From Candidatus Woesearchaeota archaeon (lineage in GTDB: Archaea > Nanobdellota > Nanobdellia > Woesearchaeales > 0-14-0-80-44-23): 64,000 bases of DNA. The notes beneath the pieces are model-generated. The model was not told where the DNA came from. It worked only from the letters and a program-made list of their open reading frames with translations, and made no database searches. The stretch covers positions 751,219 to 815,218 of the forward strand of contig JAVZCZ010000001.1 in NCBI GenBank assembly GCA_038874135.1. Direction: 5' to 3'. Below, in pieces: positions 3,223-52,245 of the stretch. The position numbers and the translations under genes are program-made. The first letter of the stretch is position 1, and each line of letters starts with the position of its first letter.

Positions 3223-5564
3223 TTTGTGCTCTGCTTTTAGGAATTGTAACTATAATCTTAGGTAGTTATGCCTGCGCTTTGGAATTTTCACCATCTTCAA
3301 TTAACGAAGTGCTTTCTATTAACAAGTTTGTTCAGAAAAACATAACTTTGAAGAATGAACTCTCCTATCCGGTAAGGATTGCTCTGGTGCCCTCTTCTAA
3401 CATTAGCGATTTATTAGACATCACTCCAAATTCTATTGAAATCGGGGCAAGAGAGTCAAAGAATGTTCTGGTTACAATATACGGAAATGTTGATCCTATA
3501 AAATTTATTAATCGCTCGTATTACATCTTTAATGGCTTCATAAAGCTTGAAGGAGCTAACGCTCAAATACCTACGGACTTGATGGTCACTAATGGAACAA
3601 TAAACCTGCCCAGCAGCATGGTGCTTTCAGCATCGGCAGGTAAGGATTATTTCACTAAATCAGAAAATCTCTCTTTTATAATTGTTGTAACGAATCTTAT
3701 GACAGGCTCAAAACCAAATGTTACTCTTTTCTATTATTTCCTAATTGATAAAAACTCAGAAATTCCCGTTGGGAACGATTCCTTCATAATTACTACTTCA
3801 AAATCAGTTGTAAAGGAATTCATACCAATGTCTTCAATACCTGATGGCACCTATACTTTCAGGGTTGTAATGTCTTATGCAGATAAGAAGAGTGTTGCTG
3901 ATGTGCCCTTCAGGATATCAACCCCATTTATATTCAGAACATTCTTAGGTATAGCTGTATGGCAGTATATACTCGGAGTGATTGCCTTAATAATAATTGG
4001 CTTGTTAGTATACTGGCGAAGGAAGCGTGTTTTGGCTTCTCGTCGTTATGGTGTGAGTGTGGATTTGCGTAGTTTTCCTTCTTCTGGTAGGCTTGTGCGT
4101 TTGGGTAAGTTGGCGGAGTATGGGCGTGATTTTTGGTTTGATTTGGATGGTTTGACTACGCATTGTATTGTGGCTGGTGCTACTGGTGGTGGTAAGACTG
4201 TTGCTGCTCAGGTTTTGGTGGAGGAGGCTTTGAAGGCTGGTGTGGCTGTGGTTGTTTTTGATCCTACGGCTCAGTGGAGTGGTTTTTTGAGGCCTTGTTC
4301 TGATAAGGGTATGTTGTCTTTGTATTCGGGTTTTGGGTTGCGTCGTTCTGATGCTCGGGGTTTTCCGGGTAATGTGAGGCAGGTGTTGGATGCTCGTGAG
4401 GTTTTTGATGTTAGGCGTTTTATGCGTCCTGGTGAGATTGAGATTTTGAGTTTGAATAGGTTGAGGCCTGAGGAGATTGATGTTTTTGTGGCTAATACTG
4501 TTAGGAGCGTGTTTGATGCGGGTTTGGATGAGTGTCGTGAGTTGAGGTTGTTGTTGGTTTATGATGAGGTGCATAGGTTGTTGCCGCGTTTTGGCGGTTC
4601 TGGTGAGGGTTTTGTGCAGATTGAGAGGGCTTGTCGTGAGTTTAGGAAGTGGGGTGTTGGTGTTGTTTTGATTAGTCAGGTTTTGTCTGATTTTGTTGGT
4701 GAGATTAAGGCTAATATTAATACTGAGGTTCAGATGAGGACTCGTGATGAGGGCGATTTGGAGCGTATTCGTGTTAAGTATGGTGATGCTTATCTTAGGG
4801 GTCTTGTGAGGGCTAGTGTGGGTACTGGTATGTTTGAGAATCCCGGTTATAATGGTGGTCGTCCTTTTTTTGTTAGTTTTAGGCCTTTGTTGCATAGTGT
4901 GGTTCGTTTGTCTGATGCCGAGTTGGGTGAGTATAATAGGTTGAATGGGGTGTTGGATGATTTGGAGTTTTGGATTGGCGAGTTGGAGCGTTTGGGTGTG
5001 GACGTGTTTGATTTGAGGTTGGAGTTGAAGTTGGCTTGGGATAAGTTGAGGGTTGGGGGGTTTGGGATGGTGGATGTTTATGTTGAGGGTTTGAGGCCTC
5101 GCGTGTTGGGCGAGTTTGAGCGTTTGGGGAGGCCTGTTCCTAAGCGTGAGGTTAAACGCCTTTCAGATGAGGAGCTTGCAAAGCAGAGGAAGCTGGCTGA
5201 GCAGAGCCGTGCAGAGTTTATAAAAAAGATGGGCATTAAAGAGCAGCAGTCCAAGCAGGAGGAAAAGAAGGAAGAACACATCGTGCAGCCTTACACTTTT
5301 GATAATGGTGCAATGGTTTCGGAGCTTAAGGAGTTGAAAGACGCTATAGAACCTATGAGTGCTGACATCCTCAGAAGCGCGTTGAGTGGAAACAATAAGC
5401 TTTCTGATTGGATAAAGAATGAGCTTAAGAATGAGCAGCTTGCCTCTGAAATTGAGAAGGCGAAGACGAAAAAGGAGATTCTTGATGCAATAACTGCTGA
5501 ACTTGATAAAGCAGAAAAGAGCAGTGAGAAATCTGGAACTGATAAAGGCCAAAAGTCTAAGTAG
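3183..5564 (+). CDS. Receptor-ATPase 1: signal/anchor, ~250-aa glycosylated ectodomain (two beta-sandwich domains), TM helix, cytoplasmic HerA/FtsK-superfamily (DUF87-like) P-loop ATPase, C-terminal adaptor domain
   Basis: GTG start with K/R n-region then a hydrophobic stretch. Sequons occur only before the TM helix (GIAVWQYILGVIALIIIGLLVYW). Walker A is AGATGGGKT, Walker B is LLLVYDEVHRL, and VVLISQ is a sensor-like block. The C-terminal ~65 aa match the HVNFERND-type domain of ORFs 26656..27150 and 35335..37869. Confidence 0.85.
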   Translation: MQVKITRQGEKGIICALLLGIVTIILGSYACALEFSPSSINEVLSINKFVQKNITLKNELSYPVRIALVPSSNISDLLDITPNSIEIGARESKNVLVTIYGNVDPIKFINRSYYIFNGFIKLEGANAQIPTDLMVTNGTINLPSSMVLSASAGKDYFTKSENLSFIIVVTNLMTGSKPNVTLFYYFLIDKNSEIPVGNDSFIITTSKSVVKEFIPMSSIPDGTYTFRVVMSYADKKSVADVPFRISTPFIFRTFLGIAVWQYILGVIALIIIGLLVYWRRKRVLASRRYGVSVDLRSFPSSGRLVRLGKLAEYGRDFWFDLDGLTTHCIVAGATGGGKTVAAQVLVEEALKAGVAVVVFDPTAQWSGFLRPCSDKGMLSLYSGFGLRRSDARGFPGNVRQVLDAREVFDVRRFMRPGEIEILSLNRLRPEEIDVFVANTVRSVFDAGLDECRELRLLLVYDEVHRLLPRFGGSGEGFVQIERACREFRKWGVGVVLISQVLSDFVGEIKANINTEVQMRTRDEGDLERIRVKYGDAYLRGLVRASVGTGMFENPGYNGGRPFFVSFRPLLHSVVRLSDAELGEYNRLNGVLDDLEFWIGELERLGVDVFDLRLELKLAWDKLRVGGFGMVDVYVEGLRPRVLGEFERLGRPVPKREVKRLSDEELAKQRKLAEQSRAEFIKKMGIKEQQSKQEEKKEEHIVQPYTFDNGAMVSELKELKDAIEPMSADILRSALSGNNKLSDWIKNELKNEQLASEIEKAKTKKEILDAITAELDKAEKSSEKSGTDKGQKSK
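4021..5176 (+). repeat. Copy 1 of an exactly duplicated 1156-bp cassette encoding the complete cytoplasmic HerA/FtsK-like ATPase module
   Basis: It is identical to 8201-9356 at a constant offset of 4180. The embedded antisense ORFs 4005..4895 and 8191..9075 translate identically. Identity begins immediately after the TM helix codons and ends at ...KRLSDEEL. Confidence 0.9.
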
Positions 5565-5941: not shown

Positions 5942-6101
5942 TGAATGCCTGGCATGGGTTGATGAAAAGGTAAAGAATAGAAGCTTTGCTAATCGGAGCC
6001 ACGGCTTTGAATTTTTAATAGCGCGATTCAAGGAGCGCCAAGAACTTCAGAATCTTCTCAACTCGCGAAATTCAAAGGAGGAAGACTTAAAACATGAATA
6101 A
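5910..6101 (+). CDS. Second ribbon-helix-helix protein, tandem paralog of the previous one; ATG at 5910 preferred over the track's TTG at 5904
   Basis: QRITITLDSECLAWVDEKVKNRSFANRSHGFEFLIARF matches the RHH pattern. It overlaps the upstream RHH gene by ~32 nt, and its stop overlaps the ATG of the downstream ATPase gene (ATGAATAA). Confidence 0.65.
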   Translation: MKQRITITLDSECLAWVDEKVKNRSFANRSHGFEFLIARFKERQELQNLLNSRNSKEEDLKHE

Positions 6102-9100
6102 AAATCCTACCTTCAGGATACTGGAACGGGACAGGCAGCTGGAAAGGAGAAGACAGCAGCTGTACATCCTATTAGGCATCTTAGGAGTTTTACTAGCAGT
6201 TGGTGTTATACTTCTGATAAGAATGTTCATAGGATACGCAGTTCTGGAAAGCAGGGCTGGCACAATAACACAACTTAATATACAGCTCAGATACTCAACA
6301 CACATATGGGCTGGATTTTACGGATTGGCATTCCGCGTTCCCGGATACACTGAGCAGCAGTCTGCAGTTGCAGTCGGCGGCACAGTCTTCTTGCAGCACT
6401 TAGTATTTGACTGCTTAAAAACTACAGACGGCAACATTCCTGAGGTATATGCCAGTACTTCAAGAAACATTGACTGGAATTCACTCCAGCCAGCAACTCC
6501 AGACTTGATTGACAGCTACCTACAAGTAGATCCTTCAGATATAACCTCTGCTTCAAACACATTTACAGAAACAATGTCAATACTCTTAGGAGACAGAGAA
6601 ATCACAAATATTGCTGCAACGCACACCAAAAAGTTCGGAGTTCCGGACAGCACGGACTTTGATATAGGCTTCTTAAAAGATTCGTTGGGAAATCTCGTAT
6701 TTGTAACCCATGTAACTCCAACTTATACCAAAGGATTTAACAACCAAACTATAAACTACCAAATGCTCCTTCCAGTACAAGCAGGAACAGCTCCAGTATA
6801 CTACTTCTTCTCAGACCCATATGACGAGTGCCAAGCAGGGCTTGAAGCTCTCAAAAATGCTACCATATTCGGAAGAGCCATAGACAATGCAACAGGCCTT
6901 CCACTTGAAAATGTTACAGTTAATCTTCATACTGCTACAGTTCTTACCAACTCTACAGGAGACTATTACATAGCAATATTTAACGGCACCTACACCCTAG
7001 TAGCTTTCAAGCCGGGATATTACACCTTTGTTGCAACAAACATCACTCTCCCAGCTGACAATCTGTCTACACCTCAATCTGAAAATATTGTCGAATTTAA
7101 TATATCCCTCATTCCCAACCCTGGAAACCCAACTGGACTCGGAAACCTAACTGGCACTGTAACTGATAAAGACTTCGGAATACCCCTCTATAATGTAACA
7201 GTGTATGTAAACGGCAGAATCGCTAAGACAAACATTACAGGCCAATACCTACTTGAACTGCCAGCAGGAAATCATTCTCTTATAGCAATGAAGGAAAACT
7301 ACAGAACATACTACACTCCAAATGTAACTATACTGCCTGGAAACACCACTGAATTTAATTTCAGTATGGAATATGCAGAGCCAGAAATAAAAGAAACTCC
7401 TGGATATCCGCTAAATACCTTCGTTTCCAACCTACTCAAACAGGCAGTGCAGAGGCCTCAAATAATACTCACTCATAAGATTGATACAAAAGAGATATTT
7501 GAAACATTAAAAGTTGGCTCATATGTCCAGCGCTCATTCAATATAACGAGTTACAGGCCTGCCGAGTCCAAAGTTGAGTTTGAAGTCATAGGAAGTGCTG
7601 CACAGCTGGTAAAGGTTGACAAGAGCAGCTCAATAATACCTCCAAGGGGTGCAGAAAACTTCACCCTTACAATTCTAGCCAATGTGCCTCCAGGCATATA
7701 TACCGGAACATTCCTAATCAAAGGAGACCTTGAAGACAGAATCCCGATAAAGATAGTTGTTTATGAGAAGGATAGACTTCCAATAGAGGCTCTTCTCCTA
7801 GAAGTAGTGCCAATAAAAAAGATAATCAGCCCAGGAGAACTATTTGAATATAAGGTCAGCATGACAAACCTGCTGAGGGACACCCCATACAACATCACCC
7901 TTTCATACAATATCACCTCGCGCTCTTCAAATCTTACTATTCCCGTTGAAGAAGAGACGAGACTCTTGGAAACTCAGCTTTCCTACCTTAAGTATTACAA
8001 GCTTCCCAAAGACCTGCCAGAAGGAGAATACTTCCTTGAAACTAGAGCGGAATTCTTAGAACTATCAACAAACACAAAATCGCTATTCATAGTTAAGAAG
8101 CCAATTTACATGTATGCATTATTCGGAATACTTCCCCTCTGGCAGCTTTTCATAATAATAGTTTTCACCTCCCTCATGACCTTCGCAGGATTAATGTATC
8201 GGAAGCGTGTTTTGGCTTCTCGTCGTTATGGTGTGAGTGTGGATTTGCGTAGTTTTCCTTCTTCTGGTAGGCTTGTGCGTTTGGGTAAGTTGGCGGAGTA
8301 TGGGCGTGATTTTTGGTTTGATTTGGATGGTTTGACTACGCATTGTATTGTGGCTGGTGCTACTGGTGGTGGTAAGACTGTTGCTGCTCAGGTTTTGGTG
8401 GAGGAGGCTTTGAAGGCTGGTGTGGCTGTGGTTGTTTTTGATCCTACGGCTCAGTGGAGTGGTTTTTTGAGGCCTTGTTCTGATAAGGGTATGTTGTCTT
8501 TGTATTCGGGTTTTGGGTTGCGTCGTTCTGATGCTCGGGGTTTTCCGGGTAATGTGAGGCAGGTGTTGGATGCTCGTGAGGTTTTTGATGTTAGGCGTTT
8601 TATGCGTCCTGGTGAGATTGAGATTTTGAGTTTGAATAGGTTGAGGCCTGAGGAGATTGATGTTTTTGTGGCTAATACTGTTAGGAGCGTGTTTGATGCG
8701 GGTTTGGATGAGTGTCGTGAGTTGAGGTTGTTGTTGGTTTATGATGAGGTGCATAGGTTGTTGCCGCGTTTTGGCGGTTCTGGTGAGGGTTTTGTGCAGA
8801 TTGAGAGGGCTTGTCGTGAGTTTAGGAAGTGGGGTGTTGGTGTTGTTTTGATTAGTCAGGTTTTGTCTGATTTTGTTGGTGAGATTAAGGCTAATATTAA
8901 TACTGAGGTTCAGATGAGGACTCGTGATGAGGGCGATTTGGAGCGTATTCGTGTTAAGTATGGTGATGCTTATCTTAGGGGTCTTGTGAGGGCTAGTGTG
9001 GGTACTGGTATGTTTGAGAATCCCGGTTATAATGGTGGTCGTCCTTTTTTTGTTAGTTTTAGGCCTTTGTTGCATAGTGTGGTTCGTTTGTCTGATGCCG

Positions 9101-9636
9101 AGTTGGGTGAGTATAATAGGTTGAATGGGGTGTTGGATGATTTGGAGTTTTGGATTGGCGAGTTGGAGCGTTTGGGTGTGGACGTGTTTGATTTGAGGTT
9201 GGAGTTGAAGTTGGCTTGGGATAAGTTGAGGGTTGGGGGGTTTGGGATGGTGGATGTTTATGTTGAGGGTTTGAGGCCTCGCGTGTTGGGCGAGTTTGAG
9301 CGTTTGGGGAGGCCTGTTCCTAAGCGTGAGGTTAAACGCCTTTCAGATGAGGAGCTGCAGAAGGAAAAGGAGATTGCTATGCAGGAACATGAGAAAGCAA
9401 AACAGCAGGAAGCAGGACAAACTTCACAAAATTCAGATTCCAAGACAGAAACTTCCCAAATTCAAAACACAAAAGTTGAAGAGCAGCCCAGCCAAAATGA
9501 AAAGGCCGAGAACCAAGAGAATGCAAAATCCTCAAATGAAAATAAAATTAAAAGAGTAAGGGAGGGTAAAAAGCAGAGGATGAGGAAATCAGCAAGTTCG
9601 GAAAAAAATAATAAAAAAAGAGGTGCTAAAAAATGA
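6094..9636 (+). CDS. Receptor-ATPase 2: N-terminal signal-anchor, ~640-aa glycosylated ectodomain (two carboxypeptidase-regulatory-like domains plus two membrane-proximal beta-sandwich domains), TM helix, cytoplasmic HerA/FtsK-like ATPase identical to that of ATPase 1, K/E/Q-rich low-complexity tail
   Basis: RRRQQLYILLGILGVLLAVGVILLI is the anchor. GRAIDNATGLPLENVTVNLHTATVLTNSTGDYYIAIFNGTYTLVAFKPGYY and a second similar unit are CarboxypepD_reg-like. The second TM helix is LFIIIVFTSLMTFAGLMY. Nucleotides 8201-9356 are identical to 4021-5176. Confidence 0.85.
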   Translation: MNKNPTFRILERDRQLERRRQQLYILLGILGVLLAVGVILLIRMFIGYAVLESRAGTITQLNIQLRYSTHIWAGFYGLAFRVPGYTEQQSAVAVGGTVFLQHLVFDCLKTTDGNIPEVYASTSRNIDWNSLQPATPDLIDSYLQVDPSDITSASNTFTETMSILLGDREITNIAATHTKKFGVPDSTDFDIGFLKDSLGNLVFVTHVTPTYTKGFNNQTINYQMLLPVQAGTAPVYYFFSDPYDECQAGLEALKNATIFGRAIDNATGLPLENVTVNLHTATVLTNSTGDYYIAIFNGTYTLVAFKPGYYTFVATNITLPADNLSTPQSENIVEFNISLIPNPGNPTGLGNLTGTVTDKDFGIPLYNVTVYVNGRIAKTNITGQYLLELPAGNHSLIAMKENYRTYYTPNVTILPGNTTEFNFSMEYAEPEIKETPGYPLNTFVSNLLKQAVQRPQIILTHKIDTKEIFETLKVGSYVQRSFNITSYRPAESKVEFEVIGSAAQLVKVDKSSSIIPPRGAENFTLTILANVPPGIYTGTFLIKGDLEDRIPIKIVVYEKDRLPIEALLLEVVPIKKIISPGELFEYKVSMTNLLRDTPYNITLSYNITSRSSNLTIPVEEETRLLETQLSYLKYYKLPKDLPEGEYFLETRAEFLELSTNTKSLFIVKKPIYMYALFGILPLWQLFIIIVFTSLMTFAGLMYRKRVLASRRYGVSVDLRSFPSSGRLVRLGKLAEYGRDFWFDLDGLTTHCIVAGATGGGKTVAAQVLVEEALKAGVAVVVFDPTAQWSGFLRPCSDKGMLSLYSGFGLRRSDARGFPGNVRQVLDAREVFDVRRFMRPGEIEILSLNRLRPEEIDVFVANTVRSVFDAGLDECRELRLLLVYDEVHRLLPRFGGSGEGFVQIERACREFRKWGVGVVLISQVLSDFVGEIKANINTEVQMRTRDEGDLERIRVKYGDAYLRGLVRASVGTGMFENPGYNGGRPFFVSFRPLLHSVVRLSDAELGEYNRLNGVLDDLEFWIGELERLGVDVFDLRLELKLAWDKLRVGGFGMVDVYVEGLRPRVLGEFERLGRPVPKREVKRLSDEELQKEKEIAMQEHEKAKQQEAGQTSQNSDSKTETSQIQNTKVEEQPSQNEKAENQENAKSSNENKIKRVREGKKQRMRKSASSEKNNKKRGAKK
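8201..9356 (+). repeat. Copy 2 of the 1156-bp ATPase cassette
   Basis: See copy 1; it is a direct repeat in the same orientation. Confidence 0.9.
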
Positions 9637-17600: not shown

Positions 17601-18652
17601 AACAATCTTATATTGAATTATATAACAACACACCTTATGCAGAAGCTACCTATAATTTATCTGCAGGAACTCATTACTGGAATGTTAGCTGCTGGGACTA
17701 TGTAAACCATACGGGCTTTAGCGAAACCTGGAACTTTACAGTTCCACTGCCAGACATCACAGTTTCAGCAATTGAATTCATTTATAATACCACAAACCCA
17801 GAAGAAGGCAAACAGCTGATGATAAATGCAACTGTAGAAAATTTAGGGAAGTCCAATGCAAACAATTTCTTAGTGCAATTCTTTGACGGAAATCCCGAAG
17901 ATGGGGGAATTCAGATTGGAAACAATATAACAATGAGTTTACAGCCGCTATCTGCTTCATACGCAATTATGAATTGGACTGCCTCCTTGGGAACTCACAA
18001 TATATTCGTGCTAGTAGATCCTCCAATAGCAACCAATGGAACGGTACAAGAAGAAAATGAGAGTAACAACATAGCTAATAAAACAATACTCATACAAAGT
18101 TGGCATTTCATCTACGGTAACCTTAGCGGAGAATTAGGACTTAGCAGCCAGCTCTATTCGCTGTTATTCCTCTGGAATGTTAGCGACGCCAACAATAGTA
18201 ATATATTTGCAGTTGACTCTGACAGCAATATTGATTGGGGAAGTCTAAAACCATTAGGATTGGATGTGAATAATCAAGCATCTCCCTACGACTTTTCAGT
18301 TCTAGACCAAAAACTAGGTATGTCAAATTATGAAGATTCAATAAACTCAACTTACACCGAGGGAGAATCTCCCAAAATGACAGAAACATTTACAATATAC
18401 GGAAAGCAGATAGAAAATGTTCCGGTAGCATATTCAATTAACAGCTCCAATTTTAAAACAGGAATACTGTGGGACACTTCCGATGGGAACACATACTTTA
18501 ACGGAACTCAGGATGTAGTTTTTGTAACTAAAACCAATATGAACGCACAGGGCAGTTTTGATCAGACAGACTACGAAATGCGCATCCCATCTAACTTGAA
18601 AAATTATATTGGCTCAAATCCAACAGTAGCATTATACTTAGAGATAAGATGA
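11612..18652 (+). CDS. Giant secreted glycoprotein (2346 aa): signal peptide, N-terminal ELWKC domain, ~14 Ig-like domains in alternating A/B subtypes, CARDB-like domain, conserved ~185-aa C-terminal domain; no C-terminal TM anchor
   Basis: The signal peptide is MNSSKFFKLIILGFIIVVGLLSQSKADS. Repeating units NCSLxINGxxNQT...W.VxCTD alternate with SCNLTxDGxxN...YYWNVSCRDxAGN. It has well over 100 N-x-S/T sequons. DITVSAIEFIYNT...ENLGKSNANNFLVQFFDGNPED...EENESNN is a CARDB signature. The ATGA overlap links it to the next gene. Confidence 0.9.
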   Translation: MNSSKFFKLIILGFIIVVGLLSQSKADSIQAVYGNTQLILTDKPQYTLGESVKINILIPTQLLSGMNVEIDTPASRYQLLDSNLSEVYFTPQQEGNYTIKISSAAGNLISSTSFLVLRKSEVEIPSSDSTSPKLSAKNWKGNYQKILRQEYLPANKKLSIEFSELSIQKIDFYNVSNPNGELKIEDVPLSYVENFSGRAARSFAIDPTLLEFTYAEIYFTATANELWKCREYDFSTRSCAGRYVKIMDTIPGRQYILHLTKEDPLYTEVWNNITCTCQNTGPNNGWAYCEVFCPVNIPIPTDALDGFIQILGYNVTITTSYPAGGYITPNSGMHYGFFDRDQLKSNGNESLIGYVAYDGPGTTTQLIYNTSMAPSGAYAFNRANCPTWTSGYCTWYVFLNSTAKSSKVKRPVTVNITLNSINWTWNYTTPAPSNITINLTSPADNTALGFRNVNFSYIPISSSPVSNCSLFINITGSWNAVATSYSIQNNSVNSINYTLSNDGEYLWNIRCYAGDISSFALYNRTLIVDTAPPSVTLLSPNNNSFSNTSIISFIYNVSDNFNIANCSLILDNVLVATSYAVTKYVPQNITYALSNGVHNWSITCFDFAGNFNISESRIINISAVPTIWDRRWYETSTSDYTSTANISLANLRDSTENSISVSVPVSTSYTLVDAISPYIGSNGAFVPKGTNVSFSGEFSTSPNAKGVISWFLYQTEGSTKNLLCNYGNGGSLGAPISSTTTASCTIQNDTLMLPTNRLQLIIIYYNNFKNLVSVTHYWDGTRLSFVEFSNFTTLGTLSVDLSYPDTDITVGQNELFNMSCTVNCSGGSCLNTLVYAQYNTSSTAFTNIGSSGNLILNTGETNPHSLGNINQSYTTTFLIKGNLASTNNIRCVAVSNYSNATGQIIRRVVVGDTTPPTVSLGNPANFSWLKSKTVTIYYTPSDNSGITNCSIYLNDILNYTLNSVPNGIEQNFTFHNLSDGLYNWTVACTDNSALTTRAAEKWFYIDTQNPSVELHQPENFIVLGSSLVLFNFTAYDEMAFNLSCNLTADNIIRISGINSLNSTPTIVNYTLSMGQHYWNVTCRDLAGNINTSETRTFNITNTPPEVTLISPPNNYWDRIGNITFIFNATDTGLISNCSLIINGQLNQTKNSTFLTNGINNFTILNMESGVYLWEVNCTDEGNLSTIAGPFTLNVDKSVPSVQLVFPSNYYNSSASSIVLQFITTDAHSANLSCNLTIDGILNSTDIIAQNNSLVSQPITFYDGIHNWSVSCSDLAGNLNSTNTWYFNISEKPSVSLSSPAPNAWTNGNVTFTFTASDNDGLYNCSLLINGAVYQTKNSSQLTNGGQNNFTVTNLLEGINQQWTVICFDLGIYKNFYSPSTRIFHVDKTPPAITLNYPADSAQIKQKNVSFNFSASDNFASNLYCNLSINGQINTSEIAVQSGSSVIVNVSGFPNGLYYWNVSCRDYAYNVNWSETNSFNVSVPPEVFLEYPLEGQWDNSENVTFYYLVTSNAELQSCSLIINGQLNQTDNSPVSSAYNNFTIFLMPEGYYTWMVNCTDSYWLTGSSNLRNLTIDRQAPWIVLNSPSNSSIVDSNYVTFNWTAFDMMADNISCDLYVDDYLRESEIYSKNGTPTTRTYIYSDGTYYWNVSCRDPAYNINWSQTYNFTVEAPPNVTLISPSNYNWSTAYSITFAYLPQDPIGIRQCTLYFDGSPNQTDYDIEANQLNYFTINPISEGVHTWSVNCTDSDWNTYMPPAFTLYIDRTPPTIVIESPVNLSVFSIPDVTFNFTAIDMLSDNISCKITINGNLNRTITVQNDTPYNFTIVKMSDNIYYWNVSCSDLAGNANASNTMQFTVSAIPSIIPISPANLSWSEVSQITFYFNATDNDGLSNCTLLINGVANQTKSSGLINGGINNITSTLTEGEYDWSIACTDSGIFYNLNLSAPQKIFVDLNSPLIVLYAPLSGSITENNSPVLNFTASDTMYPIMYCNITLDGKLKQSYIELYNNTPYAEATYNLSAGTHYWNVSCWDYVNHTGFSETWNFTVPLPDITVSAIEFIYNTTNPEEGKQLMINATVENLGKSNANNFLVQFFDGNPEDGGIQIGNNITMSLQPLSASYAIMNWTASLGTHNIFVLVDPPIATNGTVQEENESNNIANKTILIQSWHFIYGNLSGELGLSSQLYSLLFLWNVSDANNSNIFAVDSDSNIDWGSLKPLGLDVNNQASPYDFSVLDQKLGMSNYEDSINSTYTEGESPKMTETFTIYGKQIENVPVAYSINSSNFKTGILWDTSDGNTYFNGTQDVVFVTKTNMNAQGSFDQTDYEMRIPSNLKNYIGSNPTVALYLEIR

Positions 18653-21600
18653 AACGCAGCATAACTTTTGGAATAATTTTTCTACTTTTAATAGCATTAT
18701 CTCTAAAAATTTCCAGTGCGAGCTGTCCGGAAATAATACTTTCATCCAACACCACTATAAAAGATGTAGATATAAAAATAAAAGTTTCAGGGCAGACACA
18801 AGAGTCAGAATTAGTGATAAGAACGCCTTCAGGTCCGTATCGTCTTTTAGGAGATATTCCTTCCCTTACAAGCTTTACTCCAAAAGATGTAGGTAACTAC
18901 TCTGTTGAAGTTTGGCAGGACAAAGTGCTGTGTGACATAAAAAATTTTACCGCACTACCTCACAATAACTCGACACTATTCCTTCCGCCAATACTTTCCA
19001 CAGATAAAAAAGAATACCACTTAGGTGAAGCTGTTAGAATTTCACTCTCACCAGAATATTACGGTTACTCAATTGAAGGTTTAAATTTAAAACTGTTGAC
19101 AGGACAGCAATCCTACTCTCTCTTAGGGGAAATATCTGAGGATATAGAATTCCGACCTGTTTTTGAGGGTAACTATACAATTCTCTTATTAGACTCCATT
19201 GGAAATACTCTTGCTTCTGAAAGCTTTTCCGTCTACGCTTTGAATAGTTACTTTGTTAATAACTTATCTATTAAAAAACGATTTTCGGACAAATTTGAAT
19301 ACAACATCAGCACTAATTCAGAAGACATGATTGTTGAATTCTCAAACTCCTTCATTAAAAGACTAAACCTAAAGAAACTATCTTCAAGTAATCTGGCGAT
19401 AGTTAGGATTTCAGAGTTACTGCCGGAAGAGAGGAGCCGTCTGAATATTCCTACAATTGGAGGTGAAATTAAAGAATCTTTTGAATTAGATCCTTCCGCC
19501 CTAAACTTTTCAGAAGGTGAACTAACAATTGTCCCTTCAGGAAATGAGCTGTGGAAGTGCACTGATTGGAATTATGATGCTCAGTATTGTGTCGGAAGTT
19601 GGATCAAGCAGCAGAATCTTGTTCCCGGTGTTGAAAATGTAATTAAGTTTAACCTTTCCGATCCAGGATATGCTATTGTTGCAACTGCTAACATAACTTC
19701 AATAGCAGCAGCAACCCTCTCTGAAAACTCTTTTGTAGTAGCATATTGCGATGATACAAATGATAGAACTGCTTTCAAGGTTTTCTGGGCTAATGGGAGT
19801 GTAAGAACTAATGAGGTGATAGTTGATTCAACTACTGGAAATTGTGGTTACACCTCAGTTTCTGTTTCAGCACTTACCAACAACTCTTTTGTTATCGGAT
19901 GGATTGATACTGCCAGCAGTTATGCCAGCTTCGCTGTTTATGATGCCTCTGGAAATGTTATTACTCCAAGGGTGGATGTGGATACTACTGCTGGTACTTC
20001 CCGTTCTGTGAGTGTGTCTGCTTTTAATAGTTCTGCTTTTGTTTTTGGTTGGTATGATCAGGCTTCTGCTTATGCTTCTTTTAGGACTTTTAGTTCTTCT
20101 GGTGTGGCTATTTCTTCTGTTGTTAATGTGGATACTACTGCTGGTACTTGTAATGCTGTTTCTGTTTCTGCGGTTAATTCTTCTGCTTTTGTTTTTGGCT
20201 GGTATGATCAGGCTTCTTCTGATATGACTTTTCGTACTTATACTTCTTCTGGCGTTGCGATTTCTGCCGTGACTGATGTGAATACTAAGGTGGGTACTGG
20301 TTCTTTTTCTGTTTCTGTTGCTGCTTATAATTCTAGTGCTTTTGTTATTGTTTGGTATGATCAGAGGCTGGGTTATGTTAGTTTTCGTCAGTATTCTGTT
20401 GCTGGTGTTCAGATTGGGAGTCAGGTTAATCCGGATACTGCTGTTGGGACTACTGCTTCTGGTGTTTTTGTTTCTTCTGTTGGTGTGAATTCTAGTGTTT
20501 TTGCTGTGGGTTGGAATGATTTGACTACTGATGTTGTTAGTTCTGTGAGGACTTATAGTGGTGCTGGTGCTGCTGTTTCTTCTGAGGTGGTTGTGCAGGC
20601 TAATGCTTTGAAGTATAATGCTCTTGCCGGCTACTACCCTGCTACAGGCATAGGTTTCTGCAATGGAAACTTTGTAGCAATAATTGTTAATACTTCTTCG
20701 CAGGCATTTTTTAAAGCATACATGCCTAATGGAAGCGAATGGGACGGAAACTGTCCTGATGTTATACCGCCTCAAGTTGTTCTGAATAGTCCTCAGCAAG
20801 CCGCTGTCTTCTATAGTGATACTGTGGATTTTAATTTTACAGTAACCGACAATGTAGATTTAGTAATTCCAAACTGTACCCTTTGGATAAACACTTCATC
20901 AACATTCTCTCCAAACATAACAATTTACAATATAACCTCTAATAAGATGAACAACATAACTCTATCTCAAATTCCAGACAACAAATACATTTGGAATGTC
21001 AGGTGTTATGACAATGCAGGCAACTCAGCATTTGCTTCTTCAAATTTTTCATTATTTATCAACAAGAATCCACCTCAAATCTTGAACCCCCTCCTGAATG
21101 AAAGTACAGTAAATCAGAGCCATTCAGTAAAGTTTAATGTCTCAATAACCGATTCATATGGTATAGACTCTGCATATATAACTATGATGTACCCAAACGG
21201 TTCATCAAATAATTATTATCTTAATAGAAGTGGGAATGAATTTTACTTCATAATTAATAATACAATCCAGATAGGAACATATTCTGTGATATATGTGTGG
21301 GCTAATGATACCCTCGGACAAAACTCTTCTCTAACCCTTTCAGATCTCCAGTTTAATGTCACGCCTTCACCACCTGCTCAATTCAACCTTTTAAGTCCCC
21401 CGAATGCAACAGAGTCAACAAACCTGCGACCAAACTTGACTTGGGAGACATCTTACGATGAGACATTCCTTAATTATACTATTCAGATTTCTCAGGATGA
21501 AAACTTCGCAACAGTACTCTTTACATATTATAATCCGGGTGTTTATAATACTTCAAGAGTGCTGGATTATGCCCTAGAAGCGAATAAGAAATATTACTGG

Positions 21601-24600
21601 CAAGTTATTGCATACGACACCTTTGGCAATTATAAATATTCAACAAATTACTTCTCATACATAACTGACACTTTGGCACCTTCCATCGTGCTAAATATGC
21701 CGGGAAATCTTTCATTCATAAATTCTACACAAGTCAACTTTACATTTACACCTTCAGATGCTAACACGATATCAAGATGTACTCTCTACCTAAATGTCAC
21801 AGGAGCATTCCTCCCTAACACAAGTATAACTCAAGTTGTTAAAGACACTCCAAATTTAATACAAGCTGAAATTAAAGATGAGGGCGCCCACTTGTGGAAT
21901 ATCCTGTGTAATGATAGCGCAGGAAATTCTGCGTTTGCTCCTCAGAACTTCACCTTTATTTCAGATCTTAACCCGCCCTCAATACAACTATTAAGTCCTC
22001 CCAACGGCAGTACATACAACATTTCCAATTTTGTAAATTTCACTATAAATGCATCTGATAGGATATCCGCAGTATACCGCTGCACACTCATAATAAATGG
22101 ACAGCCCGTTCTTACTTCTTATTCTGTGCAGGACGGAGTGCCATACACATTTCAGTATTTCTTGCTGAATGGAAATTACTCCTGGCAGGCAGAATGTTAC
22201 GACTTAAACGGTCATTCAAACCTTTCTTATTCCTACAACATTTCAGTTTTAGTTATTGATTCAGTACCTCCAATCGTAACCTTAACTAGCCCCGCACAGG
22301 ACCAATACCTTTCCAGTAAAACAGTACTATTCAATTATACTCCGCAAGACGCTACTGGAATAAAGAACTGCACCCTATTTATTGATGGCAATGAAAACGA
22401 AACTGACTTTTCTGTTAGGAACTTGGAACCAAACTACTTCTTATTAGAATACTTAGAGGACGGGGTTCATAACTGGACTGTGCTCTGCTTTGACAATAGC
22501 AGCCAGCAGAACAGCTACGCACCCACCCCTGTAAGGTTCTCAATAGATACAACTCCGCCATCAGTAATTCTTATCTCTCCAGAAGATGGAGTTCTTACTA
22601 ATAATTCTCTAGTCACCTTTGTATACGCACCATCAGATGCAAATCTTGAAAATTGCTCCCTCTACACTAATTCTTCTAGCGAGTGGATGATGGAATCAAC
22701 AGACTTCTACCCAATTAATAATCAGCAGAATGTTTTTCAAAAATCAGTTGCGGATGGAGTTCTCGTTTGGAATGTTGTTTGTTATGATAAGGGCGGGCTC
22801 TCCAGCTTTGCTGACTTTAACCGAACATTGAATGTTGATACAACTCCGCCGCGATACGCCAATATAACTCTGATCCCGACAAGCCCAACTGAATATTCAC
22901 CTTATGGGGAGTATTACTTTAATATAACATGGATTGATGATTTTAATTTGTCATCTGTATATTTTGAGAGCAACTTTTCAGGAACCTTTGAGAATGAGAG
23001 TCCCAACCACTTTGAAAACATTTACTATGTTCACAAGACAGGTCTTAACTCAGGAACATACCAGATTAGGTGGTACGCTACTGATTCGGCAAAAAATCAG
23101 AACGAAACCCCGGCAATTCAGTATGATATAACTAAAGCAGAGCCTAACCTTACTTTAAAAATAAACAATTATTCTTATAATTTGACTGTTGAGGAAGATA
23201 GCATAGTTAATATCTCAGCAGAGCTCTTAGAGCCACCCGGAGCATACCTCTCTATTTATATTAACAATAATCTCATTACTAACGGAACTTCTCCTATTTA
23301 TACTACTTACAACTTTACAGAGCCTGGATCTTATAATGTTACTGCGAGCTTTGAAGGAAGCCAAAACTACCTTTCAGCATTCAGAACAATAATTGTAAAT
23401 GTCTCAGACACTACACCCCCAATTATAGTTCCCATCTTCCCGCAGAATAACTCATTCATAGGGGAAAATCACATTGTATTTTCTTACAATGTAACTGACA
23501 GCAGCCAAATTGCCAACTGTTCTTTATTCATAAATAGAACATTAAACCAGAGCAATACCAGCATACAGAATGGAATAAACTACTTTGAAGTTGACTTTCA
23601 AGATGGCAACTACTCCTGGCACCTCTCCTGTTATGACGAGTTTTCAAACTATGCTGAAAGCCCGGAGATATACTTCACTTCAATAAGGTCAGATAAAATA
23701 ATTGCTTCAGCACATCCTCAACAGCCGCAGTACCAAAAGGGTGAAACGGCAATACTTATAGGAAATACTACGAGCATCTTCGGAACACCATTAGATACAA
23801 ATATTTATGCTAATGTAATAAGAGGCAATACTACGATAGAATGGTGGAACACTTCATTCAAATACAGAAGGCCTATATTTATAAATAACTCAATGAACGC
23901 TTCAACATACTTGCAGGCGCTAATCAACATTTCAAACCTTAGCGCTTCAATTTCTAACTGTTCTGAACTCAGAATTGTAATGAACAACTCTTTTGAGCAC
24001 ACCCTAATCCCCTCAGAAGTACTCTTAGAAGAGGGAAATGCTTCGTGCCTGCTAAGATTTAATGCGAATGCTTCTGCACTCGCCACGAATGAGAACAACT
24101 ACTATGTATATTACGGAAACTCAGGAGCAGGAGCCCAGCAGCAGCTTCCAGAACTTGCAGGCATATCAGTACAGCGTAAGTCTGTTGTGGGAACTACAAC
24201 TTCAATCACTGATACGATGAGTGAGGTGAATACTTCAAGAGCGTTCCTGCTTTTCAGCGCCAATGTCGCCAGCTCAACTCCTGCAGTTTGGGAAATAACG
24301 GGAAGAATATTATCCTCAACGCAGGTAGTGTTTGAAAGATACTCGGGAACCACATCTGCAAATATATCCTGGCAGGTTATAGAAGGCTCAGAGATTAATG
24401 TGCAGAGGGGAACCGCATCATTTGGAGCTACACAATCAAATACTACAATACTTATAGATAGTGTTAATCTAAACGAGTCTTTCATAATAATAACCGGAAG
24501 GACCAGCAGCACCACAGCAGGGAATGCAAACATGGGCTTCTTTAGGGCAATGTTCCTTAACTCTACTGCAATTTATATTGAAAGGGCTACAACTGGAAGC

Positions 24601-26487
24601 ACTGCTGTTGCAGAATGGCAGGTAGTTTCGTGGAGTGGTGCGAGAGTGCAGAGTGGAAACATCTCTTTCATAACAGCTTCGCAGAGCGTCCCCATAGAAG
24701 AGGTTAATCTTTCCAGGAGCATGCTGATATTCAGCACTGCTGTAACTGGCAACACCAGGATAGGAGCTAACATGATTTTTGGCAACTTTACCAATTCCAC
24801 AACAGCATACTTCTCAAGAACGAATGCTGCAGGAACAGCATATGTTTCCTGGTTTGCAGTTGAGCTTCCCCAATACTACTCAGTACAAGCCGGAACAGTT
24901 TCAATCACAGCAGATACCAATGTTCAAATATACCCCGTGCGCACTGAGAAGACATTTCATCTGCACTCAGCTTCAGCAGTAGGAGCAACCAGCACTACCT
25001 ACTCTGATGCCCTAATAAGAGCCGAGCTAACAAATAGCTCAAATCTTATGCTGGATAAGGTGTCTGGCACAAATACCAACTATGTTGCCTGGTTTGTAGT
25101 AGAAGAAAAATATCTTTCAGCTAATTCGGGAATGGAAGAAGCTTTAATGGCATACAACTACAACTCCACATTGACAGGGCTTTACACTCTAAGTTGGGTT
25201 TCCGGAAAGAGCCCGGTGGGCAACTACACCTTTGTATACTCTGCAACAAAAACTAATTACTCATCTGCAAGGGCATACTCCACATTTGAGATAATTCCAG
25301 ACACAACTCCGCCCAATGTTACGCTTGTAAGCCCACTTCAACTTGAAAAGAGGGGCGTCGGAAATATAATCTTTTCCTACATACCTTATGACTTGAACCT
25401 TCTAAACTGCACACTCTACCTTGGAAAGGACGGAACTTTTTCTCCGAACATTACGAGCACGAGTCCAATAAATAATGCAGTAAACAATCTTTCAGTATAC
25501 TTAGACATCGGATTATACACTTGGAATGTGCTTTGTAGGGACAGTGAAGGAAACTCTGCATTTGCTCTGCAGAACAGGACACTTAACATAACAGGCCCAG
25601 ACCTATACCCTGTTGCTGTTTGGTTTAGCAACACGCCCAGGATTGAGACCGTTAACACAACCATCTTTGTTAACATTTCTAATAAGGGGCTTTCTGATTG
25701 TACTAAAAACTTCACTGTTGAGTTCAGGAGAAGTGGGCTGCTCATAGGCAATCTGAGTGTGCAGGGGCTGCTGATTGGCGAAGTTAAAAGCTTGAACTCT
25801 TCATTCCTGTTAGGTCCCGGCATTAATAATTTAAGTATTAGCATAGATCCTGATAACAGGATTAACGAGTCGGACGAGTCAAACAACAATGCTTATGAGG
25901 TTATTGCTGTTGAGTTTTATCAGTACTATTACGGAAATCTTAGCTTTTTACAGGTTTTGAGCAAGTCCTCAAACGAGTCTGTATTCACTTGGGAAAATTC
26001 AAATCCTGAAGATGGGGTTATTTTAGTTGCTGATATTGATTCAAAATTTGAGATTGGAAACTTAAGAGCCCTGACTCGGAATGCAAATGGGGATCCAGTT
26101 ATAAATGATCTTTCAGAATTGGATGAGGCTTTTAATTCTTCAAATCTTAACGATTCTATTAAGAATGTGTGGGGAAACGGCACTGACATTCCAATAATGA
26201 CTGCCAACTTTACGATAGGACAGTTTAATATTTCTAACGTTCCGGTAGCATATTCCAGAAATTCCACTTCTTCAATTACGGGAATACTCTGGGACTCTGC
26301 AGATGATTTAAGCCACAACCTTCAGTATGACAGCTCTGATAGGGAAGATATAGTTCTAATCACAAAGATTCACCCGTTAGCAGACTGTTCTTTTGGTAGC
26401 TGCAATTATGAGATAAGAATTCCAGCAGCTCTACGCTCTTACAAGCCTAACACCGACCTCGTAGTTTTTTACACCATGCTAAACTGA
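18649..26487 (+). CDS. Giant secreted glycoprotein (2612 aa): signal peptide, ELWKC domain, ~7 beta-propeller-like 50-aa blades (four inside an exactly duplicated cassette), Ig-like repeats, FN3-like domain, four ~110-aa jelly-roll-like repeats, CARDB domain, conserved C-terminal domain
   Basis: The signal peptide is MKRSITFGIIFLLLIALSLKISSASC. Blades have the form xVDTTAGTxxSVSVSAxNSSAFVFGWYDQASxYASFRT. Repeats such as RAFLLFSANVASSTPAVWEITGRILSSTQVVFERYSGTTSANISWQVIEG occur four times. Nucleotides 19969-20624 are identical to 30550-31205. Confidence 0.9.
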   Translation: MKRSITFGIIFLLLIALSLKISSASCPEIILSSNTTIKDVDIKIKVSGQTQESELVIRTPSGPYRLLGDIPSLTSFTPKDVGNYSVEVWQDKVLCDIKNFTALPHNNSTLFLPPILSTDKKEYHLGEAVRISLSPEYYGYSIEGLNLKLLTGQQSYSLLGEISEDIEFRPVFEGNYTILLLDSIGNTLASESFSVYALNSYFVNNLSIKKRFSDKFEYNISTNSEDMIVEFSNSFIKRLNLKKLSSSNLAIVRISELLPEERSRLNIPTIGGEIKESFELDPSALNFSEGELTIVPSGNELWKCTDWNYDAQYCVGSWIKQQNLVPGVENVIKFNLSDPGYAIVATANITSIAAATLSENSFVVAYCDDTNDRTAFKVFWANGSVRTNEVIVDSTTGNCGYTSVSVSALTNNSFVIGWIDTASSYASFAVYDASGNVITPRVDVDTTAGTSRSVSVSAFNSSAFVFGWYDQASAYASFRTFSSSGVAISSVVNVDTTAGTCNAVSVSAVNSSAFVFGWYDQASSDMTFRTYTSSGVAISAVTDVNTKVGTGSFSVSVAAYNSSAFVIVWYDQRLGYVSFRQYSVAGVQIGSQVNPDTAVGTTASGVFVSSVGVNSSVFAVGWNDLTTDVVSSVRTYSGAGAAVSSEVVVQANALKYNALAGYYPATGIGFCNGNFVAIIVNTSSQAFFKAYMPNGSEWDGNCPDVIPPQVVLNSPQQAAVFYSDTVDFNFTVTDNVDLVIPNCTLWINTSSTFSPNITIYNITSNKMNNITLSQIPDNKYIWNVRCYDNAGNSAFASSNFSLFINKNPPQILNPLLNESTVNQSHSVKFNVSITDSYGIDSAYITMMYPNGSSNNYYLNRSGNEFYFIINNTIQIGTYSVIYVWANDTLGQNSSLTLSDLQFNVTPSPPAQFNLLSPPNATESTNLRPNLTWETSYDETFLNYTIQISQDENFATVLFTYYNPGVYNTSRVLDYALEANKKYYWQVIAYDTFGNYKYSTNYFSYITDTLAPSIVLNMPGNLSFINSTQVNFTFTPSDANTISRCTLYLNVTGAFLPNTSITQVVKDTPNLIQAEIKDEGAHLWNILCNDSAGNSAFAPQNFTFISDLNPPSIQLLSPPNGSTYNISNFVNFTINASDRISAVYRCTLIINGQPVLTSYSVQDGVPYTFQYFLLNGNYSWQAECYDLNGHSNLSYSYNISVLVIDSVPPIVTLTSPAQDQYLSSKTVLFNYTPQDATGIKNCTLFIDGNENETDFSVRNLEPNYFLLEYLEDGVHNWTVLCFDNSSQQNSYAPTPVRFSIDTTPPSVILISPEDGVLTNNSLVTFVYAPSDANLENCSLYTNSSSEWMMESTDFYPINNQQNVFQKSVADGVLVWNVVCYDKGGLSSFADFNRTLNVDTTPPRYANITLIPTSPTEYSPYGEYYFNITWIDDFNLSSVYFESNFSGTFENESPNHFENIYYVHKTGLNSGTYQIRWYATDSAKNQNETPAIQYDITKAEPNLTLKINNYSYNLTVEEDSIVNISAELLEPPGAYLSIYINNNLITNGTSPIYTTYNFTEPGSYNVTASFEGSQNYLSAFRTIIVNVSDTTPPIIVPIFPQNNSFIGENHIVFSYNVTDSSQIANCSLFINRTLNQSNTSIQNGINYFEVDFQDGNYSWHLSCYDEFSNYAESPEIYFTSIRSDKIIASAHPQQPQYQKGETAILIGNTTSIFGTPLDTNIYANVIRGNTTIEWWNTSFKYRRPIFINNSMNASTYLQALINISNLSASISNCSELRIVMNNSFEHTLIPSEVLLEEGNASCLLRFNANASALATNENNYYVYYGNSGAGAQQQLPELAGISVQRKSVVGTTTSITDTMSEVNTSRAFLLFSANVASSTPAVWEITGRILSSTQVVFERYSGTTSANISWQVIEGSEINVQRGTASFGATQSNTTILIDSVNLNESFIIITGRTSSTTAGNANMGFFRAMFLNSTAIYIERATTGSTAVAEWQVVSWSGARVQSGNISFITASQSVPIEEVNLSRSMLIFSTAVTGNTRIGANMIFGNFTNSTTAYFSRTNAAGTAYVSWFAVELPQYYSVQAGTVSITADTNVQIYPVRTEKTFHLHSASAVGATSTTYSDALIRAELTNSSNLMLDKVSGTNTNYVAWFVVEEKYLSANSGMEEALMAYNYNSTLTGLYTLSWVSGKSPVGNYTFVYSATKTNYSSARAYSTFEIIPDTTPPNVTLVSPLQLEKRGVGNIIFSYIPYDLNLLNCTLYLGKDGTFSPNITSTSPINNAVNNLSVYLDIGLYTWNVLCRDSEGNSAFALQNRTLNITGPDLYPVAVWFSNTPRIETVNTTIFVNISNKGLSDCTKNFTVEFRRSGLLIGNLSVQGLLIGEVKSLNSSFLLGPGINNLSISIDPDNRINESDESNNNAYEVIAVEFYQYYYGNLSFLQVLSKSSNESVFTWENSNPEDGVILVADIDSKFEIGNLRALTRNANGDPVINDLSELDEAFNSSNLNDSIKNVWGNGTDIPIMTANFTIGQFNISNVPVAYSRNSTSSITGILWDSADDLSHNLQYDSSDREDIVLITKIHPLADCSFGSCNYEIRIPAALRSYKPNTDLVVFYTMLN
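19969..20624 (+). repeat. Copy 1 of an exactly duplicated ~656-bp cassette encoding four 50-aa beta-propeller-like blades
   Basis: It is identical to 30550-31205 at an offset of 10581. The identical + ORFs 20012..20227 and 30593..30808, and the identical antisense ORF segments, confirm it. Blades 1-2 inside the cassette are ~85% identical to each other at the nucleotide level (150-nt period). Confidence 0.9.
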
Positions 26488-52138: not shown

Positions 52139-52245
52139 GCCTCTGTAGCTCAGTGGTAGAGCGCCACCTTGGTATATTCCGCAGTCAACCCAGGCTTGGA
52201 ATTGCAGAAAGGTGGAGGTCGCGAGTTCAATCCTCGCCAGAGGCT
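52139..52245 (+). tRNA. Intron-containing tRNA, most likely tRNA-Thr (anticodon GGU), with a ~35-nt intron at the canonical 37/38 position (about 52175-52209)
   Basis: The acceptor is GCCTCTG/CAGAGGC and the D-arm is GCTC-AGTGGTA-GAGC. The anticodon stem is 5' CCACC with loop TTGGTA, interrupted before the 3' stem GGTGG. The T-arm is GCGAG-TTCAATC-CTCGC. A TATA-like GTTTTAAAAACA lies ~28 nt upstream. The isotype call depends on the intron placement. Confidence 0.65.

Follow-up and report, generated by a model that had tools for sequence, protein, structure and literature searches.

Concerted evolution by intragenomic gene conversion is known for duplicated tuf genes, rRNA operons and families of bacterial surface proteins, and cassette transfer into surface-protein genes underlies antigenic variation in Neisseria (pilE/pilS) and Borrelia (vlsE). 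Conversion can also be biased towards particular bases, as in GC-biased gene conversion (gBGC), exemplified by the Fxy gene at the mouse pseudoautosomal boundary. Here we analyse a 64-kb stretch of DNA (contig JAVZCZ010000001.1; hereafter the window) from a metagenome-assembled genome (MAG) of Candidatus Woesearchaeota, in which two otherwise diverged genes for secreted or surface proteins, the giant g1 and the smaller g2, share an exact 656-nucleotide (nt) tract in the middle of a predicted beta-propeller domain (Table 1). On the coding strand, the silent sites of this tract are occupied almost completely by the keto bases G and T.

The locus resembles the described systems only in part. As in concerted evolution, an exact tract lies within diverged paralogues, the tract sorts by genome and its flanks by gene type, and related lineages carry independent tracts. 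Unlike in concerted evolution, the tract has been recoded to the keto-richest codons, and this has happened in two unrelated gene pairs of one locus, in a member of the DPANN archaea. As in cassette antigenic variation, an internal segment appears to move non-reciprocally into a surface-protein gene from a nearby, co-oriented donor. Here, however, the donor g2 is an intact and probably expressed complete open reading frame (ORF), there are two copies only, and no silent archive was found in the source genome (searched at the protein level) or in a scan of a related genome from Kamchatka; the same tract is also present in two strains, so that variation is undemonstrated. As in gBGC, the compositional shift is limited to the converting segment, has a sharp border, comes close to saturating silent sites and spills over to non-synonymous sites, and hence to amino acids. 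Classical gBGC, however, drives sequences towards G+C, whereas the shift seen here is towards G+T on the coding strand, along the keto/amino axis, with GC content unchanged; it is asymmetric with respect to the strands, which is impossible for a symmetric mismatch-repair bias. Gene conversion between paralogues is ordinary; what seems not to have been described before is the keto coding. A literature search gave nothing relevant on gene conversion in Woesearchaeota or DPANN archaea, on biased conversion in archaea, or on the DPANN locus of ATPases and giant proteins.

An exact repeat in two diverged paralogues

The two copies of the tract are identical at 656 of 656 positions, and no further base matches at either end. 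Both lie on the plus strand as direct repeats, with starts 10,581 nt apart, and each starts on a codon boundary and is read in frame, encoding amino acids (aa) 441–658 of the 2612-aa g1 ORF and aa 131–348 of the 752-aa g2 ORF. A k-mer census of the 64 kb revealed a single other exact repeat of at least 30 nt, the 1156-nt cassette shared by two ATPase genes (Table 1), and no inverted repeats. These comparisons confirm the repeat as reported in a preliminary description of the window, including its content of four blades: the tract corresponds to units 3–6 of the domain, plus the start of unit 7.

Outside the tract the two genes are clearly different. Codon-aware alignment of the propeller flanks gave 22–68% aa and 45–72% nt identity upstream of the tract, and 56–72% aa identity downstream. 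The borders are sharp, because the flanking propeller sequence is far less identical than the tract; at the right border, the next ~31 nt contain just 4 differences between g1 and g2. As g1 and g2 are otherwise ~55–70% nt-identical in the propeller domain, a chance match is excluded. The proposal that the central blades alone had been homogenised, within older flanks, therefore stands, since the flanks are diverged and group by gene type.

The internal repetition of the tract is weaker than was first thought. Adjacent units within it are 77–79% identical over 150 nt (blades 1 and 2 had been put at ~85%), the longest exact run is 24 nt, and Tandem Repeats Finder detected a period of 150 with 2.6 copies and 77% matches. 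It had also been suggested that slippage between the units could change the number of blades. This is unsupported, because the number of units is constant in relatives: the full 7-unit domain is present in 14 of 14 close relatives, and 7 units are carried by nearly all of the best 150 family members listed.

Conversion is recurrent and the small gene is the donor

We compared syntenic loci from related lineages; the related DNA retrieved comes to 972 kb, and individual loci are designated by L and a number. In a Kamchatka MAG (JBNAUL010000001.1), g1 and g2 share an exact tract of 713 nt (L008 6089–6801 = L009 6071–6783). In a Crystal-Geyser-type lineage, represented by a Joint Genome Institute (JGI) contig with 99.9% identity to a MAG from Crystal Geyser (CG07_land), they share a tract of 391 nt with 1 mismatch (L005 11086–11476 = 21818–22208). 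Both the borders and the sequences of the tracts differ among the window, the Kamchatka and the Crystal-Geyser-type lineages. Since each lineage has its own exact tract with its own borders, conversion has been recurrent.

We judged conflict between trees by region-wise identity matrices over alignment columns. In columns 24–103, g1 has 63–67% identity with g1 orthologues and 53% with the g2 of the window, and g2 is 71–78% identical to g2 orthologues. In columns 268–324, which lie in the window tract and outside the other tracts, both window genes are 68–76% identical to g2 types and 45–47% identical to g1 types. In columns 105–213, the g1 gene of L005 is 92% identical to the g2-type gene of L022 and 77% identical to L006, whereas elsewhere L006 is 90–95% identical to L005 g1; by this comparison with L006, the 391-nt tract is a recent conversion. 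Flanks, therefore, group by gene type, and the tract groups by genome. Because the tract sequence is of the g2 type, g2 is the donor and g1 the recipient; as far as sequence comparison can tell, the small gene has been the donor and the giant gene the recipient independently in two lineages. An identical segment within diverged flanks, phylogenetic conflict and independent events in related genomes are all found here, and they identify the 656-nt repeat, at the level of sequence, as a tract of non-reciprocal gene conversion between co-oriented paralogues.

Keto coding of the conversion tracts

The preliminary description had correctly assigned native codons to the flanks, and had left unexamined the non-native coding of the tract, which is the most unusual feature of the locus. 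Third codon positions of the tract comprise A 0, C 4, G 41 and T 173 (P ~1e-58 against a 50:50 background). Every NNY site is T (59 T, 0 C), every NNR site is G (16 G, 0 A), and fourfold sites are 114 T, 20 G, 4 C and 0 A. The base composition of the tract (A 0.14, C 0.14, G 0.27, T 0.45) accordingly differs from that of the window (0.30, 0.21, 0.19, 0.30, respectively), with essentially the same GC content (0.41 and 0.40). In a sliding scan of the 64 kb, a G+T content of 0.69–0.78 (compared with 0.49±0.075) was reached solely at the four cassette copies, that is, the two copies of the propeller tract and the two of the ATPase cassette. With the cassettes masked, the keto (G/T) share at third codon positions (K3; K denotes the keto share in general) was 0.50±0.06 for ORFs and 0.48±0.08 for 618 windows of 100 codons, with a maximum of 0.69.

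The ATPase cassette, which is unrelated to the propeller, shows the same coding, its third positions being A 2, C 10, G 157 and T 215 (P ~1e-94 against a 50:50 background). The ATPase tracts are exact and keto-coded in three lineages, with lengths of 1156 nt in the window, 1240 nt in L072 and 1066 nt in L073, and K3 of 0.97, 0.98 and 1.00, respectively; in each of the three, the tract spans the conserved cytoplasmic ATPase domain. The Kamchatka propeller tract has a K3 of 0.95, and keto tracts with other borders are present in the same propeller domain in L007 (from the HeHuaBianFuWa hot spring), L022 and L024. Borders of keto coding and borders of identity coincide within a few codons in five of six cases, the exception being the Crystal-Geyser-type propeller tract. 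Throughout the 972 kb, stop-free frames with a K3 of at least 0.92 over 80 codons were found only in these tracts and in one further patch of ~125 codons (L056 3739–4119; JGI Ga0180732_1000782, an unrelated lineage). This patch is in a gene for a 1010-aa, internally repetitive, Asn/Thr/Tyr-rich protein, and may represent the same phenomenon among internal repeats. Two unrelated gene pairs, and lineages from three continents, thus have silent sites that are 97–100% G/T on one strand while GC content is unchanged.

The bias is not restricted to third positions. In keto tracts, Leu is encoded by TTG in 93–98% of cases (background 8%), and Arg is divided ~1:1 between AGG and CGT, which are equally keto-rich (CGT is used in 0 of 41 cases in the background). 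The use of TTG for Leu and the split between AGG and CGT for Arg therefore indicate that the bias acts on bases and not on wobble decoding. At codon positions 1 and 2, K is 0.59–0.61, compared with 0.52–0.56 in homologous columns of non-keto genes; amino-to-keto differences at these positions outnumber keto-to-amino ones by 68 to 30 in Kamchatka and by 40 to 26 in the window. Translational selection was considered and rejected, given that ribosomal protein and other housekeeping genes have a K3 of 0.5–0.6, and that the same preference extends to the first base of Leu codons and to the division of Arg between AGG and CGT.

Long ORFs run antisense to both copies of the tract (310 and 274 aa; Table 1). 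We rejected an antisense gene as their explanation. The sense strand has no codon ending in A, hence no TTA, CTA or TCA, and so the exactly complementary frame is free of stops; the antisense ORFs follow automatically from the missing A-ending codons. We also noted that runs of at least five T on the coding strand occur at 5–7.6 per kb in the tracts and at 1.2–1.7 per kb elsewhere, oligo-T runs thus being 4–6 times denser. T-runs on the coding strand can act as intrinsic terminators in archaea, and the tracts might attenuate transcription of their host genes in this way.

A proposed mechanism for strand-biased conversion

In our judgement the locus is probably best explained by recurrent conversion from g2 to g1, with the keto coding being a long-term product of conversion and the bias having an EndoMS-like basis. 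Non-reciprocal homologous recombination would replace units 3–6 and the start of unit 7 of g1 by g2 sequence. If transmission were asymmetric on the coding strand, amino-to-keto changes (A/C to G/T) would spread to both copies, and keto-to-amino changes would be erased. The most economical basis for such an asymmetry would be a heteroduplex of constant strand polarity, in which a strand of one copy is paired with the complement of the other, together with a mismatch system that attacks G/T, G/G and T/T and is blind to A/C, C/C and A/A. Changes in one direction would then produce invisible amino/amino mismatches and pass, and the reverse changes would produce keto/keto mismatches and be destroyed. 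This transmission filter would need only that conversion be more frequent than mutation. It would be expected to bring silent sites to saturation within the time taken by neutral divergence, and to push replaceable sites as well, as GC-biased conversion does in eukaryotes. Uniform codons would, in turn, raise the DNA identity between the paralogues and favour further conversion.

An archaeal enzyme with a mismatch preference on the same keto/amino axis has been described. EndoMS/NucS cleaves G/T, G/G and T/T mismatches, and T/C and A/G less efficiently, whereas A/C, C/C and A/A are ignored (PMC4838380); NucS is also reported to restrain recombination between diverged (homeologous) repeats (PMC8228993). 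We found no link in the literature between EndoMS/NucS and composition bias or biased gene conversion. The data themselves show the identity of the copies, the fold, the recurrence, the donor type and the codon anomaly with its restriction to conversion tracts; we infer conversion as the cause of the bias, the asymmetry between strands, and the type of enzyme.

Several observations weigh against this mechanism. The near-exact 391-nt propeller tract of the Crystal-Geyser-type lineage has a K3 of just 0.60, so that conversion alone is insufficient for keto coding. In L074 (6040–12406; GCA_054038655.1, a distant DPANN genome of 31% GC), the ATPase pair shares stretches of at least 60 identical residues within an overall identity of 57% (78.6% nt identity over 1164 nt), which amounts to patchy conversion without keto coding. 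The g2 gene of L005 is still somewhat enriched in keto bases beyond the tract of identity that it has now, an observation that the simple model fails to predict. Reverse causality, in which keto coding came first and led to conversion by raising DNA identity, would account just as well for the coinciding borders. As to the enzyme, no nucS gene is present within the 64-kb window. The sign of an EndoMS-type bias would moreover depend on which strand carries the donor information, which is not derivable here, and the fixed polarity is itself a hypothesis that the model leaves unexplained.

In summary, two neighbouring genes for surface proteins of this DPANN archaeon repeatedly overwrite one another's central propeller segment, and the keto coding of the shared stretch points to strand-biased recombination. 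If conversion is indeed the source of the keto coding, this would be the first instance of gene conversion biased along the keto/amino axis, and a natural in vivo read-out of the mismatch blindness of archaeal EndoMS/NucS or of an unknown equivalent. A bias originating in the recombination or mismatch machinery would reveal how heteroduplexes are processed in vivo in archaea without MutS/MutL, would provide a sequence signature for long-standing conversion tracts in uncultured genomes, and would mean that biased conversion can reshape the protein composition of prokaryotes. More tentatively, this DPANN lineage may have a general strand-asymmetric, keto-biased conversion drive, by which paralogues under conversion would be driven to G or T at every silent site and at some replaceable ones, giving 'NNK-coded' tracts.

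Alternative explanations

Strand-specific DNA damage is the alternative that fares best, although we regard it as unlikely. According to it, the coding strand is exposed as single-stranded DNA in a recombination intermediate, a D-loop or a transcription bubble, where deamination changes C to T and A to G, and depurination, bypassed with A, changes purines to T; purifying selection retains the silent changes and conversion spreads them. The chemical pattern fits (NNY all T, NNR all G, and at fourfold sites T far above G, then C, then A), and resembles that of the heavy strand of vertebrate mitochondrial DNA, which is G+T-rich. In both cases one strand is G+T-rich at silent sites, in the direction expected from a loss of amino bases. 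Unlike the moderate mitochondrial deamination skew, however, the tracts reach 98%, form patches of 0.4–1.3 kb that coincide with conversion tracts, and involve transversions too. The keto propeller lineages of known source come from the hot springs of Kamchatka and HeHuaBianFuWa. Crystal Geyser, on the other hand, is a cold site, and keto coding is complete in the ATPase tract of the Crystal-Geyser-type lineage (K3 1.00), so that heat cannot be a requirement; as this is the very lineage whose propeller tract is not keto-coded, we rejected temperature as the cause of keto coding. Deamination explains neither the excess of C-to-G transversions at non-synonymous sites (18 versus 6) nor the rise of CGT among Arg codons from 0 to ~50%. 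By a rough estimate, rare intermediates would expose too little single-stranded time to saturate silent sites, and transcription would affect whole genes, not patches of 0.7–1.2 kb.

Selection on the nucleic acid itself is slightly less likely again. Here keto coding would be maintained because it helps the paralogues to recombine (for homogenisation or shuffling of blades), or for some property of the mRNA or DNA, and identity would be a consequence. The coincidence of tract and keto borders in five of six cases agrees with this, as does the correspondence of the ATPase tract to exactly the conserved cytoplasmic domain in three lineages, and uniform codons do raise nt identity between related protein segments. 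However, a search of the tracts for Rfam families and other RNA features was negative, and the amino acids are shifted too, which is typical of a directional force of mutation or conversion and not of codon choice. Second-order selection of such strength would also be hard to maintain, and L074 converts patchily without keto coding.

That a foreign, keto-coded cassette (of viral or plasmid origin, or derived from another strain or a silent archive copy) was pasted into both genes is improbable. The coding is alien to the genome, and related keto tracts occur in several lineages. In the 972 kb of related DNA, however, keto coding is limited to patches of at most 1.3 kb inside native genes, and the sole viral contig with a homologue is not keto-coded. 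The scan of the Kamchatka MAG returned the two known copies only, the protein search of the source genome returned the two genes only, and the protein encoded by the tract is plainly orthologous to g2 of related lineages.

An assembly artefact, in which a collapsed or bubble-popped repeat was used twice while the genes were in reality similar but not identical, or one of them lacked the tract, is very improbable. The data are metagenome assemblies, and one contig, L020, joins g1 to g2 through the tract (see below), so assemblers do walk through it. Nevertheless, an independent assembly of a different strain (GCA_038871545.1, contig JAVZHW010000001.1) holds both copies, each identical to that of the window, which speaks against an assembly error. 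Compared with window positions 9227–36487, this contig has 13 mismatches, with 24 further downstream in total, and none in the propeller tracts; at the strain level one or two single-nucleotide polymorphisms lie inside tracts, too few to polarise. The contig starts with the last 130 nt of the ATPase cassette, as is usual where short-read contigs break in a long repeat. As a true repeat is expected to break contigs, it is in keeping that contigs of five other assemblies (L004, L018, L022, L024 and L061) terminate inside the propeller tract. The agreement of the two assemblies and the five contig breaks, all observed in assembled contigs, are compatible with the presence of both copies on one molecule. 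Furthermore, the architecture recurs in three lineages from different continents, each with a different tract; a wrong path through a repeat would exchange flanks without creating identity; and both genes contain the keto coding, intact frames and conserved motifs. In practice, tracts of this kind break short-read assemblies, make chimeric joins and yield long spurious antisense ORFs.

Least credible of all is copying by a reverse transcriptase, as in diversity-generating retroelements, which are said to be frequent among DPANN archaea; one copy would then serve as the template repeat and the other would be the variable repeat. Adenine is indeed absent from silent sites, but no reverse transcriptase domain was found among window ORFs of at least 150 aa, the copies are identical and hence show no adenine-specific differences, adenine is kept at codon positions 1 and 2, cytosine is depleted too, and the tract is several times longer than the repeats of these elements.

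Crossover between the copies

We analysed the product expected from a crossover between the two copies of the tract. It would be an in-frame fusion of 1062 aa, a fusion of the two proteins having been anticipated in the preliminary description, and the event would remove the five annotated genes that lie between the copies (Table 1), not three as stated there. The same architecture is found in L020 (JGI Ga0210049_1002054), from a sister lineage. Positions 1–10711 of L020 match the g1 side of L005 and positions 10299–16096 match the g2 side, with the overlap of the two parts falling in the tract; an intact ORF of 1109 aa (8831–12157) runs from the g1 N-terminus through the tract to the g2 C-terminus, and the intervening genes are missing. 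The join in L020 may be a genuine allele in which a deletion has fused the genes, or else the assembler may have jumped through the repeat.

Fold and family of the propeller domain

The domain shared by g1 and g2 is confidently predicted to be a seven-bladed beta-propeller. For the g2 domain, AlphaFold2 with 7 aligned homologues gave a model with a predicted local distance difference test (pLDDT) score of 90.9 and a predicted template modelling (TM) score of 0.92, and its 28 strands form seven four-stranded antiparallel blades in a closed ring; the structure check that had been suggested thus ended in favour of a repeat-domain fold. Foldseek against the PDB returned propellers only, among them the seven-blade domain of prolyl-oligopeptidase, sialidases, fucose lectins and Sec12. 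There were 358 propeller matches at E ≤1e-3, the top ones being seven- and six-bladed, with TM scores of ~0.5–0.6 and identities of at most 12%.

Sequence searches gave much less. No Pfam model scored above threshold for the propeller domain; Kelch_1 (PF01344) stayed below its gathering threshold, with a best E of 6e-4 in two of seven members and 8.3 bits for the window protein (cut-off 20.1). Searching PDB sequences with a profile gave one weak match, to Kelch-like protein 17 (E = 7.5e-5). The domain therefore resembles Kelch-type and other seven-bladed propellers in having seven four-stranded blades of ~50 aa and a weak profile similarity to Kelch-like protein 17, and is unlike them in its own motif, VDxDT...SVSVSAFNS[ST]xFVxGWYD, and in the N-x-S/T sequon present in most blades. 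The family is large and uncharacterised, with 294 cluster representatives at E ≤1e-30, 1490 at ≤1e-10 and 4551 at ≤1e-3. Nearly all of the best 150 members listed match the full 364 profile positions, and the proteins are up to 7893 aa long.

The C-terminal region of g2 had no Pfam match, and its AlphaFold2 model (pLDDT 53) was too poor to use. In another protein of Ca. Woesearchaeota (P0004, NTV63_04135), this region (64% identity) follows an unrelated N-terminal domain, and the propeller head and the C-terminal region of g2 are therefore separable modules.

Genomic context

The window is chromosomal DNA; identical proteins are recorded from a 909,956-nt contig and from a second assembly. Its left half is a single co-oriented cluster, consisting of a gene for a PKD-domain protein, a short and a long HerA/DUF87-type ATPase gene, two small genes, two genes for giant proteins rich in immunoglobulin (Ig)-like domains (2346 and 2612 aa, the latter being g1), five small genes, g2 and one further gene. 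The pair of short and long ATPases is kept in hundreds of DPANN genomes. Within this one conserved locus, the propeller heads of g1 and g2 and the motor domains of two membrane ATPases are kept identical, which suggests that the members of each pair have to recognise, or act together with, a common partner. The positions of the features are collected in Table 1.

Table 1. Positions of the tracts, their host genes and associated features in the 64-kb window
Feature	Position	Strand	Remarks
ATPase cassette, copy 1	4021..5176	+	in short HerA-like ATPase gene 3183–5564; K3 = 0.97
ATPase cassette, copy 2	8201..9356	+	in long HerA-like ATPase gene 6094–9636; identical to 4021–5176
g1, gene for 2612-aa giant secreted/surface protein	18649..26487	+	named 'CARDB domain-containing protein' (Ca. 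Woesearchaeota MAG); N-terminal hydrophobic leader, unique N-terminal region, propeller, many Ig-like domains, CARDB domain
g1 propeller domain	19666..20757	+	predicted; 7 sequence units of ~50 aa; BLASTP to g2 domain; profile match aa 344–703
Antisense ORF, 310 aa	19867..20799	-	by-product of keto coding; twin at 30460–31284 (-), 274 aa
Propeller tract, copy 1, in g1	19969..20624	+	keto-coded (K3 = 0.98); units 3–6 and first 12 residues of unit 7
Five small genes of unknown function	26656..30112	+	between the tract copies; 164, 256, 67, 230 and 302/305 aa
g2, gene for 752-aa secreted protein	30160..32418	+	leader, propeller, C-terminal all-beta region
g2 propeller domain	30241..31338	+	AlphaFold2 model of a seven-bladed beta-propeller
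Propeller tract, copy 2, in g2	30550..31205	+	identical to 19969–20624

Some further features of the locus and its surroundings were noted. In the Kamchatka MAG, an exact 99-nt direct repeat (L072 16820–16918 = 17070–17168) lies directly downstream of the long ATPase gene. The gene for the 2346-aa giant protein contains Ig-like repeats (window 13404–17170) with a period of ~561–576 nt and 60–72% DNA identity.

The right half of the window has archaeal housekeeping genes, including those for a topoisomerase, L10e, an IF2-type GTPase (Pfam GTP_EFTU and IF-2), a NOG1-type GTPase and tRNAs. In GCA_038871545.1, the NOG1-type GTPase gene is split by a 100-nt gap followed by a 127-nt duplicated overlap (L001 21778–21879); the split is an artefact of scaffolding and suggests that the assembly used a k-mer of 127. 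At 52139–52245 of the window (plus strand), Rfam gives a 107-nt tRNA match, unreported by ARAGORN, which is probably an intron-containing archaeal tRNA.

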